Origin: Gammaproteobacteria bacterium
GTDB taxonomy: Bacteria; Pseudomonadota; Gammaproteobacteria; CBDDKY01
Assembly: GCA_965230455.1 (NCBI GenBank)
Contig: CBDDKY010000003.1
Span: 1,439,856 to 1,503,855 of the forward strand
Length of the DNA stretch: 64,000 nucleotides
Reading direction: 5' to 3'
A program made the position numbers and the translations under genes. Below are positions 1,206 to 25,406 of the stretch, one piece after another. The stretch's first letter is position 1; every line of letters begins with the position of its first letter. The notes under the pieces are model-generated. The model was not told where the DNA came from. It did not search any database and saw only the letters and a program-made list of their open reading frames with translations.

Positions 1206-3866
1206 ATGACTAAGGCAAAGAGTAAGCAACCTATCTATTTAAAAGACTATCAATCGCCTGCTTACGGTATAGATACCGTAGAGTTATACATTCAGCTTGA
1301 GCCCACGAATACCCGCGTGCGCTCAACCCTTATGTGCAAACGAAATACCAACGAGCAACAGGCAGTTGACCTCGTTTTGAATGGGGAACAACTTACTTTA
1401 CTCAGTATTGCTTTAGACGGACGCCCTTTGGACGTAGGGCAAGACTATCAAATAACCGCTAATCAACTGATTATTAAAGAACCGCCCGAGCAGTTTGAGC
1501 TGATTATTGAAAATACAATGAACCCTGAAGCTAATAAAGCCTTAACAGGCTTGTATATTTCGAGAGGTATTTTTTGTACGCAATGCGAGGCGGAAGGTTT
1601 TCGGCGCATTACCTATTATTTAGACACACCTGATGTGATGTCTGTGTTTACCACAACATTGGTGGCTGAAAAGGCTCGTTTTCCACTTTTGCTGGCCAAT
1701 GGTAATTTGGTTGAAAAGGGTGAATATGATGATGGGCGTCATTATGTCACATGGTTTGATCCCCATAAAAAGCCCGCTTATCTTTTTGCGCTAGTGGCGG
1801 GAAGTCTTGAGAAAATAGCAGATACTTATACCACAAGCTCCGGGCGTGTGGTGAGCTTGGAAATTTTTGCCACGGCCAATCAAATTGAACAATGTTATTA
1901 TGCCATGGAAAGTTTAAAAGCCGCTATGCGTTGGGATGAAGACGCTTACGGGCGTGAATATGATTTAGATCATTATATGATAGTGGTCATCAGTGACTTT
2001 AACATGGGAGCGATGGAAAATAAGGGTTTAAATATTTTCAATAGTAAATATGTGCTTGCTGATCCTAAAACGGCCACCGATAGAGACTATGAATTGGTTG
2101 AGGCCGTTATTGGTCATGAGTATTTTCACAACTGGAGTGGTAATCGTGTGACTTTGCGTGATTGGTTTCAGTTGAGCTTGAAGGAAGGCTTTACGGTTTT
2201 TCGGGAACAACAATTTAGTGAGTCGCAAGGTGCGGGTGCTGTCAAACGCTTAAGAGACGTACAGATTCTGCGTGAGCGTCAATTCGCCCAAGACGCAGGA
2301 CCTATGGCTCATCCGATACGTCCAGATAGCTACATAGAGATTAATAATTTTTATACGGTGACCGTTTATAATAAAGGTGCTGAAGTGATCCGTATGTTGC
2401 ATACTCTATTAGGCGAGGCGGGGTTTCGTAAGGGGTCAGACTTATATTTCTCTCGCCACGATGGTCAGGCGGTCACCACCGATGATTTTGTGGCCTGTAT
2501 GGCAGAAGCCAATCAACATGATTTATCACAATTTAAACGTTGGTATGAGCAGTCGGGAACGCCGGAGCTCACTATCGAAACACGCTATGATGCAGCCCAA
2601 GCGCGCTATAGGATGACCATTACGCAGCAATGTCCTCCCACGTATAATCAACCAACCAAAGAACCTTTTTACATCCCGTTACGGCTGGGACTATTAAGCG
2701 AATCAGGTGAACCTATTCCTCTACAATTAGAAGGTGAGTCTGTTGATGCGGCAACGGTAGAACGAGTACTGTTTGTAACCCAAGAAAAGCAAACCTTTGA
2801 GTTTGTAAAGGTAGAATCTAAACCGCAGCCGTCTTTATTGCGGGGTTTTTCTGCACCGGTTAACGTGAATGTTGATTTTTCTGATGAGGAATTAGCTTTT
2901 CTTTGGCAGCACGATACGGATTCTTTTGCTAAATGGGAAGCTGGCCAAAAGCTTTGCACGGGCTTGGTTAATCAAGCTGTCCATGCCATGGGCAGTGGCG
3001 TGAATTTTGCGTTACCCGCTGATGTACTTGAGATTTACCGAACTATTTTACAAGACAGCCAATTAGATAATGCATTTAAGGCGGAACTGTTATCGTTGCC
3101 TTCTTATCATTCACTGAGCCTCGCACAAGAGCGTTTGCATCCTGGTCATGTTTATGCGGCTCGTGAGCAGCTGCGTGCGCAAATTGCTAAGGCACATCGT
3201 AATCTATTACTTGAGACCTATGTTGAAAATCATGAGACGAACGATGAGCTGAATGCGCTTGCCATTGGTAAACGTTGCATTAAAAATCTTTGTTTAAGTT
3301 ATCTGATGTTGTCAGAGGATAATGAAGCGCGAGCTTTGTGTCAGCAACAATTAGCTTGTGCCAAGAATATGACCGATAGCTTTGCAGCGTTAGAAGCGTT
3401 GGTATTGAGTACTTACGATGCAGAAGCTGAGCAAGTGTTGGCTGCTTTTTATGGGCAGTGGCAATCTGAAGATTTAGTTATTGATAAATGGTTTGCGCTG
3501 CAAGCCAAACGAGCCGGTGAGGCGGCTTTGGCGCGGATAAAAGCTTTAATGGAACATGAGGCGTTTACCTTAGAAAATCCAAATCGTGCTCGCGCGCTGA
3601 TTATGGGGTTTTGTGAAGGCAATCCTACACAATTTCATCGTGAAGATGGCGCAGGATACGCCTTTTTAGCCGAGCAGGTTTTAACGATTGATGCCTTTAA
3701 TCCACAGTTAGCGGCGCGGTTATTAGAGCCCTTCACACAATGGCATCGCTTAGAAACAACACGACAACAGGCCATGTATGCTTGTCTGACGCAGTTGCAA
3801 ACGCAGGCGCTCTCTCCAGATGCTTTTGAGATAGTAGAGCGGAGCTTGAATTATAAGGTTGCATAA
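1206..3866 (+). CDS. pepN: Aminopeptidase N (M1 family)
   Basis: GAMENKG exopeptidase motif, HEYFH...E zinc motif, 886 aa. Confidence 0.97.
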   Translation: MTKAKSKQPIYLKDYQSPAYGIDTVELYIQLEPTNTRVRSTLMCKRNTNEQQAVDLVLNGEQLTLLSIALDGRPLDVGQDYQITANQLIIKEPPEQFELIIENTMNPEANKALTGLYISRGIFCTQCEAEGFRRITYYLDTPDVMSVFTTTLVAEKARFPLLLANGNLVEKGEYDDGRHYVTWFDPHKKPAYLFALVAGSLEKIADTYTTSSGRVVSLEIFATANQIEQCYYAMESLKAAMRWDEDAYGREYDLDHYMIVVISDFNMGAMENKGLNIFNSKYVLADPKTATDRDYELVEAVIGHEYFHNWSGNRVTLRDWFQLSLKEGFTVFREQQFSESQGAGAVKRLRDVQILRERQFAQDAGPMAHPIRPDSYIEINNFYTVTVYNKGAEVIRMLHTLLGEAGFRKGSDLYFSRHDGQAVTTDDFVACMAEANQHDLSQFKRWYEQSGTPELTIETRYDAAQARYRMTITQQCPPTYNQPTKEPFYIPLRLGLLSESGEPIPLQLEGESVDAATVERVLFVTQEKQTFEFVKVESKPQPSLLRGFSAPVNVNVDFSDEELAFLWQHDTDSFAKWEAGQKLCTGLVNQAVHAMGSGVNFALPADVLEIYRTILQDSQLDNAFKAELLSLPSYHSLSLAQERLHPGHVYAAREQLRAQIAKAHRNLLLETYVENHETNDELNALAIGKRCIKNLCLSYLMLSEDNEARALCQQQLACAKNMTDSFAALEALVLSTYDAEAEQVLAAFYGQWQSEDLVIDKWFALQAKRAGEAALARIKALMEHEAFTLENPNRARALIMGFCEGNPTQFHREDGAGYAFLAEQVLTIDAFNPQLAARLLEPFTQWHRLETTRQQAMYACLTQLQTQALSPDAFEIVERSLNYKVA

Positions 3867-4477
3867 TGACCGTGCGCGTTAAATTTTGTGGACTAACAAC
3901 GCAGCAAGATGCACAGCTTGCGGTAGAGCTAGGTGCAGATGCCTTGGGTTTAAATTTTTGTCCTGAGACGTCTGCCCGGTATGTCAGTGTCGCGCAAGCA
4001 AAAAACATGGTGCGACATTTGCCGCCCTACGTGACGTTGGTTGGCGTTTTTCAAGACCCCGACGCCCAGTGGGTGCAGCAGGTGCTTCAGCATATTCCTT
4101 TACACAGCTTACAATTTCATGGTAATGAGTCTGTTGAGTTTTGCCGGAGTTTTTCACGGTCTTATGACAAAGCCGTCACGGTCACAGACAGTGCTGATCT
4201 TGTAGTCCAGCGAAAAACTTATTCGGATGCGCAAGGTTTATTAGTGGACAGCCCTAAGCACGTTTTGAATACGGCGCATTGGGAATACTGTCAACAGGTT
4301 AGCATACCTGGCCTGGTATTGGCTGGGGGGCTTACGCCCGACAATGTTGGCCATCTTATTAAAACCATTGCACCGGCAGCTGTGGATGTGGCATCTGGAA
4401 TAGAAAGTGCCGTGGGTGTTAAAGATGTAACGAAAATGACTCATTTTATAGAACAGGTGAGAAAGGCATGTCTGTAG
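3866..4477 (+). CDS. trpF: Phosphoribosylanthranilate isomerase
   Basis: [24 protein letters not shown] and VDVASGIE motifs; directly upstream of trpB. Confidence 0.95.
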
Positions 4478-11540: not shown

Positions 11541-11758
11541 TATACCCGTAGCGTTTGAGTTTTAGGTTTTTGAGCTGCCATCTGCCAACTACCTTTGAAT
11601 GATTTTGCCCTAAAAAAATCGTCGGGTAGAACAATAGCTACCATCCTCTTTTTTTAGGGCAAAATCATTCAAATCTAATTGACATCTGGCGCTCAAAACA
11701 ATAGCGTGCTCCATGGAAAGCTTCATGCAACACCTAAAACTCAAACGCTACGGGTATA
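11541..11758. mobile_element. ERIC-like MITE
   Basis: TATACCCGTAGCGTTTGAGTTTTAGGT ... ACCTAAAACTCAAACGCTACGGGTATA, with a long internal inverted repeat (TTTGAATGATTTTGCCCTAAAAAAA). Confidence 0.85.
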
Positions 11759-11883
11759 TAGTCCCCGCAGTTGAAAGTTCGGGAAATTATTTGTTAATGT
11801 GATAACATAAGTTTTATATTTTAGCGCCTGGATGTTAGTCAGATTTGAACAATTTTTACTGAAAAAACGAGGATTTTAGCTAT

Positions 11884-11907
11884 TGTAAGTCTTAGTTTTG
11901 TTATAGT
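11884..11907 (+). promoter_or_regulatory. -10 half of the IS110 circle-junction promoter
   Basis: Joining the right end (...CATGGTTGAT) to the left end gives TTGATT-N17-TATAGT; TG precedes the -10 box (extended -10). Confidence 0.75.
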
Positions 11908-11913
11908 AGGTCC

Positions 11914-12096
11914 CAAGAGAGTAGAACCCCGGGCATAAGCCCAGGGTTCGCGGGCATGAGCGACCGTATAGCTATTGGTAAAACCAACCGCGTAGAATCC
12001 AGGTACTCTAGCCCAGCTCTCGATACGTTTGAATGGTTGCAAGGGACACATAAAGTGCTCCCGCTTACAATCGTAAACACCTTTAACTATCGAGAG
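11914..12096 (+). ncRNA. IS110 bridge RNA (5' hairpin, target-binding loop, donor-binding loop)
   Basis: Hairpin 11924-11949. Stem-loop 11952-12014 carries TATAGCTAT and TAGAAT, matching the target. Stem-loop 12017-12096 carries ATGGTTG and CTTACAAT, matching the donor junction. RNA ends are approximate. Confidence 0.85.
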
Positions 12097-12100
12097 GACT

Positions 12101-13058
12101 ATGATGGTAGCATATAATAACTTCGTTGGCATTGATGTCGGTAAATTCAATTTTTTTGTTAACTTGCACGGCGCCCCCCCCCGTTCATGAATACCCTAAT
12201 GACATCAGTGGAATACAAGCATTTCTAACCGAATACTCTGCAAAACTCCAACAAGCTTTATGTGTGATAGAAACAACAGGTGGCTATGAAGCGCCCCTGC
12301 TCTTAACACTCTGTCAACAACACATAGCGGTTCATCGTGCCAATACACGCCATGTAAAAAGTTTTATTCGTTCCTATGGACACGGGGTAAAAACCGATGC
12401 ATTGGATGCAAAAGCTCTGGCACGCTATGGCTATGAACGACATGAAACCCTGGCTTGTTATGAGCCGCCCAATGATACTCAAAGCGAACTCTATAATTTG
12501 GTCAGTCGCCAGCATGATTTAAAGCAAATGCGCACAGCTGAAAAAAATCGATTGAAAGCTCCTAATACAAGCAGTTTAATGCAAGCCAGTTGCTCGCGTA
12601 TGATAGAGATGCTTACGAATGAAATTGAAGCCTTTGAAACGCGCATTAATGCGTTGATAGCCGATGATGAATTACTGACGTTTAAGAAGACGGCTATACA
12701 AACCATACCAGGCATCGGAAAGATACTCTCCAGTGAGTTAATCGTTCTATTACCTGAGCTAGGCCAATTGAGTCGACGAGAGATTGCTTCTCTGGTGGGA
12801 GTTGCTCCAAGAGCGAATGACAGCGGAAGACATCAAGGTTATCGTTCCACGGGTCATGGACGACCAGGCATTAAGCCAAGGCTATACATGGCGGCGATGG
12901 CAGCACGGAACTCAAACTCTTCGTTAAAAACTTTTTATAATGGGCTTGTTGAGCGAGGGAAGCCAAAGAAAGTGGCTTTAACCGCATTAATGCGAAAAAT
13001 TATTGTTATAGCTAATGCCCGTATTAAAGCGCTTAACTTGTCAATACAACCGACTTAA
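12101..13058 (+). pseudogene. IS110 recombinase/transposase, frameshifted at a C9 tract
   Basis: ATG 12101 gives MMVAYNNFVGIDVGK (first catalytic Asp). The remainder (VIETTGGYE, KTDALDA, IPGIG, NDSG) is in another frame. One fewer C at 12174-12182 would fuse the two. Confidence 0.88.
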
Positions 13059-13432
13059 ACATGAATCTATAGGATAGGCTCTCAGTCACACCTGCATAAT
13101 TCCTGAAGCGGAGTGAATATTGATATTTCTCACCATTAAGCTTGTGGACCCTGTGTATAAGTGATGTACCCTAACTAAAAGTTGGTTCTCAGCGAAGGAG
13201 ACACTTGAAAAAGCCGCATGTAGTTGATGGAGTAACAGCACTTTTGGTCTGTTATATGGGCAAAGAACTAACCTTTACAACATGGTTGATTCTAAATGAC
13301 AAGTTTTTTCAGTAAAAATTGTTCAAAGATGGCTGGCAGACAGACAGCTAAAACCCGAGGTTTCAACTGCGGGGACTATATATTGGGAGGCAGACTCGTA
13401 ACGATATGATTTGACGGTTATGCTGATAAGCC

Positions 13433-14197
13433 CTAGTCTTCTCGATAAACCGCACTATAACCATGTTGCATTACCGGCATCACAATGATTTCGCTTACAT
13501 TAACGTTAGCCGGAGCATTGACGCAGTAAGCAACACTATCGGCAATGTCGTTGCCTGTCAGCGCTTCAAAACCGTGGTAGACAGCTTCACTTTGTTCTTT
13601 ATCGCCTGCAAAACGTGTCTGACTAAACTCTGTTTCCACAAGGCCCGGTGAGACCTGGGAGACTCTAATGTGTTTGCCAGCAAGGTCTAATCGTAGGCCT
13701 CGACTGAGCGCATCTACGGCGTGTTTGGTGGCGCAGTAAACGCTACCACCGGCATAGACATTATGGCTGGAGGTAGAGGCAATATTCACAATATGTCCGT
13801 TGTCTTTTACCACCATGTGAGAGAGGACTAAGTGAGTGGTATACAGCAGCCCTTTGATATTAACATCAATCATTTGGCTCCAGTGAGCAGGATTAGCGTC
13901 TTGTAGTTTATCCAGGCTAAGTGCCAAGCCGGCATTATTGATGAGGACATCAACCTGAGCAAGCTCTTGAGAAAAGCCGTGGAAACACGCTTCCACGGTT
14001 TCACGCGTGGAGATATCACAAGGGACGCTCAGGCAATTGATAGCAAATTCGCGTTCTAGTTTAGCGGCAAGCACGTTGAGGCGCTCCTCGCGTCTGGCCA
14101 CCAATATTAAATTCGCACCTTCTTGGGCAAAACGTTCTGCACATGCAGCCCCAATGCCGCTGGAAGCGCCTGTAATCAGGATGGTTTTATTTTTCAT
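13433..14197 (-). CDS. NADP-dependent SDR oxidoreductase (YdfG-like)
   Basis: TGASSGIG, LINNAG and YCATK motifs. Confidence 0.9.
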   Translation of the reverse strand: MKNKTILITGASSGIGAACAERFAQEGANLILVARREERLNVLAAKLEREFAINCLSVPCDISTRETVEACFHGFSQELAQVDVLINNAGLALSLDKLQDANPAHWSQMIDVNIKGLLYTTHLVLSHMVVKDNGHIVNIASTSSHNVYAGGSVYCATKHAVDALSRGLRLDLAGKHIRVSQVSPGLVETEFSQTRFAGDKEQSEAVYHGFEALTGNDIADSVAYCVNAPANVNVSEIIVMPVMQHGYSAVYRED

Positions 14198-25188: not shown

Positions 25189-25406
25189 TATACCCAATTA
25201 ACCTGAAGATGCTTGGTTTTGATATTTTTTATTACTGAGCTTAATTTGAAGATTGAGCGTCCAGATAATGAGTAGATTTAACCGTTTTGACCGAAGATTG
25301 CCGGAGTAATAGCTATTCTATTGCGAGGACAAGCTGAGGGAAAAACGGCTAAAGATGCTCATTAGATGGAATGCTCAAACAAGCATCTTCAGGTTAATTG
25401 GGTATA
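25189..25406. mobile_element. ERIC-like MITE holding an unoccupied IS110 target
   Basis: 27-bp terminal inverted repeat TATACCCAATTAACCTGAAGATGCTTG; ATAGCTATTCTA in its central region at 25309-25320. Confidence 0.88.

Follow-up and report, generated by a model that had tools for sequence, protein, structure and literature searches.

The DNA analyzed here is a 64,000-nucleotide stretch (the window) of contig CBDDKY010000003.1 (positions 1,439,856 to 1,503,855; assembly GCA_965230455.1), from a gammaproteobacterial genome of 2.76 Mb that comprises 5 contigs and has a G+C content of 42%. Positions 11884-13290 of the window hold an insertion sequence (IS) of the IS110 group, which is 1407 bp long if one of its two AT core dinucleotides is included; because AT is found at each end, the element could be written just as well as 11882-13288. 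The IS carries a DEDD/Ser recombinase gene and, in its left noncoding end, very probably a bridge RNA with four guides that correspond to the insertion site and to the element's own joined ends. The features of the element and its surroundings are as follows.

11756..11883, no strand: left half of the host repeat, about 220 bp in full, with terminal inverted repeats and resembling a miniature inverted-repeat transposable element; ends with the left target and the core
11875-81: left target TTTAGCT, followed by the core AT at 11882-83
11884..13290, + strand: insertion sequence, delimited by its copies, by empty paralogous sites, and by contigs that skip from 11881 to 13289
11884..11889, + strand: initial bases of the IS, forming the right donor arm TGTAAG; the right donor guide at 12064-71 matches them
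11899..11907, + strand: extended -10 box TGnTATAGT, a consensus match
12101..13058, + strand: IS110-family DEDD/Ser recombinase gene, here in two frames (12101-12190, ending at TGA, and the remainder in the frame of the open reading frame [ORF] 12126-13058)
12174..12182, + strand: frame-shifting run of nine C residues (C9); a run of eight (C8) gives an open 318-aa gene
13059..13290, + strand: right noncoding end of 232 nt, whose last bases are ATGGTTG (13282-88), the left donor arm, and AT (13289-90), the core
13291..13383, no strand: right half of the host repeat, starting with the right target TCTA(AA), of which TCTA is 13291-94

The boundaries of the IS are proven independently of the guides. 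Five full copies that are 99.7-100% identical were found in the genome, together with a copy that another IS interrupts, one left half and one right half, and two short stubs of the left end; we count the near-identity of the copies as a sign of recent activity, in favor of the assignment given above. AT precedes and TCTA follows every full copy (n = 5), and the interrupted copy is followed by TCAA. The string AGCTATTCTA occurs 39 times in the genome, compared with 8.7 expected occurrences. Of these, 26 lie in unoccupied copies of the repeat that flanks the IS in the window (i.e., an uninterrupted GGATTTTAGCT-AT-TCTAAATGAC), two other repeated contexts contain 2 each, and 9 are scattered, which is approximately the number expected by chance. 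The removal of the IS had been predicted to leave TTTAGCT-AT-TCTA, and the 26 empty paralogous sites carry exactly this joined flank. The host repeat is present in about 30 genomic copies with terminal inverted repeats (TATAGTCCCCGCAGTTGAAA...; e.g., G000:C2:578468-578877), and 29 BLAST matches to it cross the insertion site without interruption, the site being the loop of an inner palindrome. Contigs assembled from public sequencing runs also join 11881 to 13289; since the repeat has 26 empty paralogues, these joints are no evidence for excision at the window locus. Loose contig ends cluster at 11755-59, where contig depth rises. Two further site types, with two empty copies each, begin with GGTAGCT-AT-TCTACCC and AATAGCT-AT-TCTATTG; one empty site of the second type lies within the window near 25311.

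The recombinase contains the two Pfam domains PF01548 (positions 1-148 of 155) and PF02371, and it matches the NCBIfam model NF033542 (IS110 family RNA-guided transposase) at 183.1 bits, compared with a cut-off of 140. It aligns to the structure of IS621 over residues 7-309 (E value, 9.3e-25; 90.8 bits) and to that of ISCro4 (chain 9t56_A; E value, 1.8e-23). Residues D99, D102, and S241 stand opposite D102, D105, and S241 of IS621 as named in print, the deposited chain being numbered two higher. The same alignment places GIDVGK opposite GIDTAK and IETTG opposite IEATG, and we take the Asp of GIDVGK and the Glu of IETTG to be the D and E of the DEDD motif.

Guides and fold of the left end

The predicted bridge RNA is about 180 nt long, extending roughly from 11914 to 12096 within the approximately 220 nt upstream of the recombinase gene. 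Its parts are listed below.

11924..11949, + strand: 5' stem-loop of the predicted bridge RNA, from a single-sequence fold; present in relatives, with variable sequence
11948..12082, + strand: bridge RNA core, with a target-loop module at about 11950-12015 and a donor-loop module at about 12026-12079
11967..11975, + strand: left target guide TATAGCTAT, including the core AT; 8/9 match to the site in the window
11993-98, + strand: right target guide TAGAAT (reverse complement of AT+TCTA); CC occupies the handshake position just after it (11999-12000)
12033..12039, + strand: left donor guide ATGGTTG, identical to the right end of the IS at 13282-88
12064-71, + strand: right donor guide CTTACAAT (reverse complement of AT+TGTAAG); CG occupies the handshake position just after it (12072-73)

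The four guide strings, as well as the flank and end strings paired with them in the initial annotation, all lie at the coordinates given there. Matches in the window are 8/9 for the left target guide, 6/6 for the right target guide, 7/7 for the left donor guide, and 8/8 for the right donor guide. When the 183-nt left end was shuffled 200,000 times, the single matches recurred at frequencies of 0.0097, 0.045, 0.0063, and 0.0026, respectively, and all four were never obtained jointly. Each guide contains the AT core (target, ATAGCT-AT and AT-TCTA; donor, ATGGTTG and AT-TGTAAG). The reading of TATAGCTAT as a 9-nt left target guide stands as to position and 8/9 match but not as to length: the T at 11967 is part of a CCGT conserved in relatives, and nearly all relatives match from the second position of the 9-mer, so the working guide probably spans just the 8 nt from 11968 to 11975, seven of which match the site in the window. 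The site of the interrupted copy on contig C4 fits the 9-nt string completely (9/9).

The left end had also been described as a 5' hairpin followed by two stem-bounded internal loops, and this is what the fold of 11914-12096 returned: a hairpin at 11924-49 and two modules, each consisting of a stem, an internal loop, and an inner hairpin. The minimum free energy is -65.2 kcal/mol (z = -5.2), with a mean of -44.5 among shuffled sequences and none of 200 shuffles as stable. The basal stem of the donor module (12017-25 with 12088-96) overlaps a Shine-Dalgarno-like GAGAGGA (12092-98) ahead of the start codons at 12101 and 12104, and because of this overlap, the folded RNA could mask translation of the recombinase. 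Position 11931 is G in the window copy and A in the four other full copies and in the contigs of all four public runs (X1 to X4); within the 5' hairpin, the G adds one pair, with C11942.

Covariation among related elements

Relatives were sought by a scan of one genome per species, which yielded 109 related stretches, of which 80 were retained; the closest relative of the recombinase among the 80 loci shows 60% protein identity. Their record titles name metagenome-assembled genomes of Gammaproteobacteria/Legionellales, Legionella nautarum, Wolbachia, Rickettsiales, Holosporaceae, Bdellovibrionota, Acetobacteraceae, Sphingomonas, and others. From the 80, we took 28 loci in which the match starts at query residue 8 or earlier and enough upstream DNA is available, with one locus per multi-copy set. 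Exceptions were the Acetobacteraceae loci L048 and L049, both of which were taken, and L022, which was taken while L032 was used only in the comparison of copies. L049, identical to L048 in its upstream region, was then dropped, leaving 27 loci (protein identity, 43-60% for 26 of them and 40% for L057), or 28 elements with the window. L048, with a long insertion, and L054, with its 5' part missing, were excluded from the RNA alignments and the covariance model. Left ends were located by a loose pattern independent of the guides, and right ends were located by the left donor guide plus core; in the multi-copy sets, the assigned ends agree with the points at which the copies cease to be alike. 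The DNA of the IS itself was not found in a search of 30 other genomes of the same class, and it was unmatched in the near mode of a search of a plasmid collection.

The fold is conserved in these relatives. RNAalifold, applied to 25 sequences, recovered both modules, with compensatory changes in 14 of 22 pairs. Among 24 relatives considered without the window, 96.4% of the cells are paired, and both sides change in 18 of 26 pairs; when the partners were slid by one to three columns, only 35-51% of the cells were paired, and none of 500 shuffles reached any of five measures. The GUUG/CAAU helix is uninformative in this respect, being invariant and contained in the two donor guides. From the 24 relatives, with the window excluded, a covariance model was built that found 11948-12082 at 107.8 bits (E value, 6e-23) as its sole match in the 64 kb. 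Across the whole genome, the same leave-one-out model found exactly seven left-end copies.

The guides follow the flanking DNA of their own elements, a relation that the initial annotation had proposed as a check. The left flank (9 nt, in any register within the loop strand) has at least seven matches in the RNA of the same element in 26/28 elements, compared with 28/736 noncognate pairs, and the core plus right flank matches at 6/6 positions in 21/28 cognate pairs, compared with 8/676 noncognate pairs. In a fixed register across the 28 elements, 227 of 308 noncore positions match, a total reached by none of 10,000 permutations. On the donor side, the right donor guides CTTACA, CATACA, CAGACA, and CACACA occur with the element starts TGTAAG, TGTATG, TGTCTG, and TGTGTG, respectively; this guide matches at 8/8 positions in 16 elements and at 7/8 in the remaining 12. 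Guide-homologous positions in the alignment of left ends thus differ between elements and track each element's own DNA.

The core of this clade is AT on both sides in 22/27 relatives (23/28 elements with the window). Two other relatives carry GT at both positions, another two combine a left-hand GT with a right-hand AT, and the remaining one is unclear. The claim of an AT core is therefore correct for the window IS, but the core is not special to this element, being the rule among its relatives; moreover, an AG core has been published for ISPpu9 (PMC12288879).

Consensus matches point to a promoter that would be rebuilt across the junction of the right and left ends. Joining the ends creates a -35 box, TTGATT (13286-90 plus 11884), 17 bp upstream of the extended -10 box; this box scores 4/6, compared with 1/6 for GCTATT at the same position in the integrated state. 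Both boxes score at least 4/6 in 22 of the 28 elements, 21 of them at 17-bp spacing; for the integrated -35 box, the score is 1-2 of 6 throughout the 28. Transcription starting about 7 nt past the -10 box would begin near 11914. A promoter rebuilt across the joined ends has been described for IS621 (PMC11208160). A further promoter-like match, TTGTTA-18-TATATT, lies at 11791-11820 in the left half of the host repeat and is directed into the IS; this consensus match could allow read-through transcription of an integrated copy.

Once strands have been exchanged in IS621, the two bases after each right guide (i.e., the handshake bases) pair with the other DNA at positions 6-7; their pairing with the element's own DNA blocks or hinders exchange (PMC11208160, PMC11208158). 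In 25 of the 28 elements, the base immediately 3' of the right target guide pairs with donor position 7, and in 8, it pairs with its own target. Of the two bases that follow the right donor guide, the second pairs with target position 6 in 18 elements, with G/C swaps that track the target, and the first, nearly always C, pairs with the element's own donor position 7 (G) in 24. The handshake bases of the window IS, CC and CG, offer one cross pair each: C11999 is complementary to donor position 7 (G), G12073 is complementary to target position 6 (C), and C12072 is complementary to the element's own donor position 7. The picture is mixed, the IS621 rule appearing to be partly kept in the clade and partly not.

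Comparison with known systems and alternative explanations

The bridge RNA of IS621 begins with a 5' stem-loop, after which come a loop that binds the target and a loop that binds the donor; each loop's 3' side is the reverse complement of the core plus right arm, and the core takes part in all four pairings (PMC11208160). The initial annotation assigned this layout to the left end of the window IS, and guide covariation, RNA pair covariation, the leave-one-out model, and protein homology agree with that assignment, the likeness of the RNAs having been judged from published descriptions and not from a direct RNA alignment. IS621 of Escherichia coli and the window IS share both protein domains and a full-length protein alignment, a left-end RNA with a 5' stem-loop, a target loop, and a donor loop, and four sense and antisense guides that each include a 2-nt core. 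They also share a promoter rebuilt at the joined ends (predicted from consensus matches in the window IS), insertion into a repeated palindromic element, and a base after the right target guide that is complementary to donor position 7. They differ in the core (CT in IS621 and AT here), in the target (ATAGCT-AT-TCTA here) and donor (ATGGTTG-AT-TGTAAG here), in the pairing of the first base after the right donor guide with its own donor, in their proteins, which are distant (90.8 bits over about 300 residues), and in the right end, which here equals the left in length or slightly exceeds it. In all sequence-visible features, the element works like IS621, yet it is no close relative of IS621.

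Similar comparisons can be drawn with other systems. ISCro4/IS622 of Citrobacter rodentium has a homologous recombinase and the same bridge RNA plan, with a CT core (bioRxiv 10.1101/2025.05.14.653916); it is active in human cells, and IS621 is proven at the bench, whereas the window element is known from sequence alone. The 27 relatives share with the window IS the RNA architecture, the junction promoter, and a nearly identical donor (A/G-T/G-A-G-T-T-G-AT-TGT-A/C-A/T-G), but each has target guides and a target of its own. ISPpu9 and ISPpu10 of Pseudomonas putida are IS110-family elements that likewise use a fixed dinucleotide within repeated extragenic palindromes and form end-joined circles (PMC12288879; bioRxiv 10.64898/2026.03.19.712850); ISPpu9, compared by description only, differs in its AG dinucleotide and in an extra small-RNA module (PMC12288879). 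The IS1111 group with its seekRNA shares the transposase type and an RNA-guided choice of site (PMC11187229), but its RNA lies in the right end and its sub-terminal inverted repeats are longer (PMC11208160), whereas the RNA lies in the left end here.

By analogy with IS621, the element would leave as a circle, and the TTGATT-17-TGnTATAGT promoter created by its joined ends would drive both the RNA and the recombinase. A recombinase tetramer carrying the RNA would then recombine the circle junction with a matching site by strand exchange at AT. In this genome, the loop of the approximately 220-bp repeat, with its roughly 30 copies, is the natural site. Copies with a C8 run could supply the recombinase in trans to the C9 copy in the window, because all copies encode the same guides.

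Several observations weigh against reading the left end as a working bridge RNA. The match of the left donor guide is circular for single-copy relatives, because this guide was used to locate their right ends, and it is independent only for the window and for four multi-copy sets in which the right end is covered. The left flank matches at only 6/9 positions in L025 and L040. The right flank matches at 4/6 positions in L022, whose right end was found only with a mismatch and whose sister L032 has the expected TACC; at 3/6 in L026, in which the right end is followed by TGTAAG; and at 3/6 in L040. The left flank of one genomic copy of the window IS (C5:89230) is a poor in-register fit to the guide. 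As noted above, the base that directly follows the right donor guide pairs with the element's own donor in most cases. The right end (232 nt) is no shorter than the left (217-220 nt, from 11884 to 12100 or 12103), even though the RNA is in the left; this is unlike the typical IS110 group, in which a longer left end is a tendency rather than a strict rule (PMC11208160). The recombinase gene of the window copy is out of frame in the assembly. An Rfam scan of 11600-13600 with E values up to 10 gave chance-level matches only (the best reaching 21.5 bits, compared with a gathering threshold of 55), the coverage of bridge RNAs in Rfam being uncertain. No RNA runs are listed among the sequencing runs with IS sequence, and the joint of right end to left end that a circle or tandem would contain is absent from the assembled contigs of X1 to X4, which cannot show rare molecules.

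Alternatives to the bridge RNA were nevertheless far less convincing. That the four matches arose by coincidence is practically negligible as an explanation, being refuted by the 200,000 shuffles, which never yielded all four, and by the covariation in relatives, where the same positions match in 27 other elements of different sequence. It also appears very improbable that the matching strings act as DNA (i.e., as sub-terminal recombinase sites or a target mimic), with the left end serving as an mRNA leader only. The overlap of the donor-module basal stem with GAGAGGA makes a leader role plausible, although beside a guide role; the compensatory changes occur in guide-free stems, for which only RNA structure accounts, and the guides track flanking host DNA that lies outside the element. 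In addition, the RNA of the homologous IS621 has been shown biochemically and structurally to pair with DNA (PMC11208160, PMC11208158). We therefore retain the reading of an IS110-group element with a left-end bridge RNA. The initial annotation held that the frameshift would have to be repaired, a view that does not stand, as two full C8 copies in the same genome carry an intact, open 318-aa gene (one such copy is at G000:C3:1293110-1294515). C8 can be regarded as the working frame, because the single collapsed IS contigs of X1, X2, and X3 each have one C fewer than the window at 12174 and a diverged IS variant in X4, a run labeled as a coral metagenome, has AA plus C6, which is also the C8 frame.

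The seven genomic copies of this region comprise four with C8, two with C9, and one with C10, and two explanations of this variation were considered. Homopolymers of 9-10 bases are a usual weak point of long-read assemblies, and it is a serious possibility, if not quite a probable one, that C9 here and C10 in another copy are assembly errors, that all copies are really C8, and that the window copy is intact. The shorter run in the contigs of X1 to X3 and the four C8 copies speak for such errors; however, the contigs merge copies and drop minority variants, so that C9 or C10 in three of seven copies could be hidden, and the assembly is clean elsewhere, with seven of the eight full-length copies of a second, 1253-bp IS being 100% identical and gapless. 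Rather more doubtful is that the run is a real hypermutable switch (C8, on; C9 and C10, off) that limits the dosage of recombinase, with off copies being moved in trans. Three run lengths among seven otherwise near-identical copies fit such a switch, as does the X4 variant, in which the run is interrupted yet the C8 frame is kept, and the identical guides in all copies would permit action in trans; the same C-run data, however, are compatible with sequencing error. A broader view, which we consider unlikely, combines a true on/off switch at the C8/C9/C10 run, the silent copies being moved by the few that are on, with an AT-core clade whose rules are somewhat unlike those of IS621; different rules are suggested because the base after the right donor guide pairs with its own donor, a pairing that hinders exchange in IS621.

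The window IS illustrates that a single genome suffices for reading the full address code of a bridge recombinase (i.e., target, donor, and core); 26 unoccupied sites, 5 full copies, and several unusual junctions serve as natural controls. In presenting the IS as a candidate programmable tool, the initial annotation went too far. Reprogrammed IS621 works with AT, GT, and TT cores at lower efficiency (PMC11208160), and because it is less efficient with engineered non-CT cores, a natural AT-core element should be of some value to tool builders, more so as it comes from a clade in which AT is the rule. No paper was retrieved by a literature search that combined "AT core" with "bridge RNA," but the orthologue tables of PMC11208160 and 10.1101/2025.05.14.653916 lay outside that search, and AT-core elements may already be published there. 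The picture of the family is unchanged, since thousands of bridge RNAs have been predicted by covariance models (PMC11208160) and the protein is already annotated as an IS110 family RNA-guided transposase.

Unusual copies, junctions, and variants

Some copies in the genome have unusual flanks or are incomplete. Three are of note for their flanks (G000:C4:62736-64143, C4:88571-89976, and C5:89230-90636), and two of them have flanks of different site types on the two sides, which suggests recombination between copies or sites. In the C5:89230-90636 copy, the right flank fits, but the left flank, ATAAGCTA-AT, is the one with a poor in-register fit to the left target guide. A 2026 preprint on "half-match recombination" may bear on these copies.

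The second IS (1253 bp; L006 ~2678-3930; G000:C4:189194-190446) lies in the interrupted copy at IS positions 230-239, where the two pieces overlap by 10 bp. A 383-aa ORF of this second IS matches DDE_Tnp_1_assoc and DDE_Tnp_1, and eight full-length copies of it are present in the genome. The left half of the window IS (IS positions 1-818; G000:C2:390663-391480) and the right half (812-1407; G000:C3:1210240-1210835) lie on different contigs and share their break point, which would fit a copy that another insertion split before a rearrangement.

Two unrelated genomes contain a right end (...GTTG-AT) that is followed by TGTAAG, the right donor arm of the element itself, and then by unrelated DNA (G000:C3:1210836 onward and L026:3504 onward). 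These GTTG-AT-TGTAAG junctions may be remnants of a tandem or circle-type arrangement, or they may reflect insertion into a donor-like site. The two left-end stubs, of 39 nt and about 57 nt (G000:C3:86204-86242 and G000:C5:126280-126336), run directly into TCTACCC, the right target of the second site type, and the joint of the C5 stub falls at an AT within the region of the left target guide (...GACCGT-AT-TCTACCC). Both stubs look like internal deletions that extend up to the right end.

The diverged IS variant in X4 differs from the window copy at 11991-11992, at 12174-12176, and at about 30 other positions. The first of these differences replaces CG with TT beside the right target guide, by which the complementarity to the right flank of the repeat grows from ATTCTA to ATTCTAAA.

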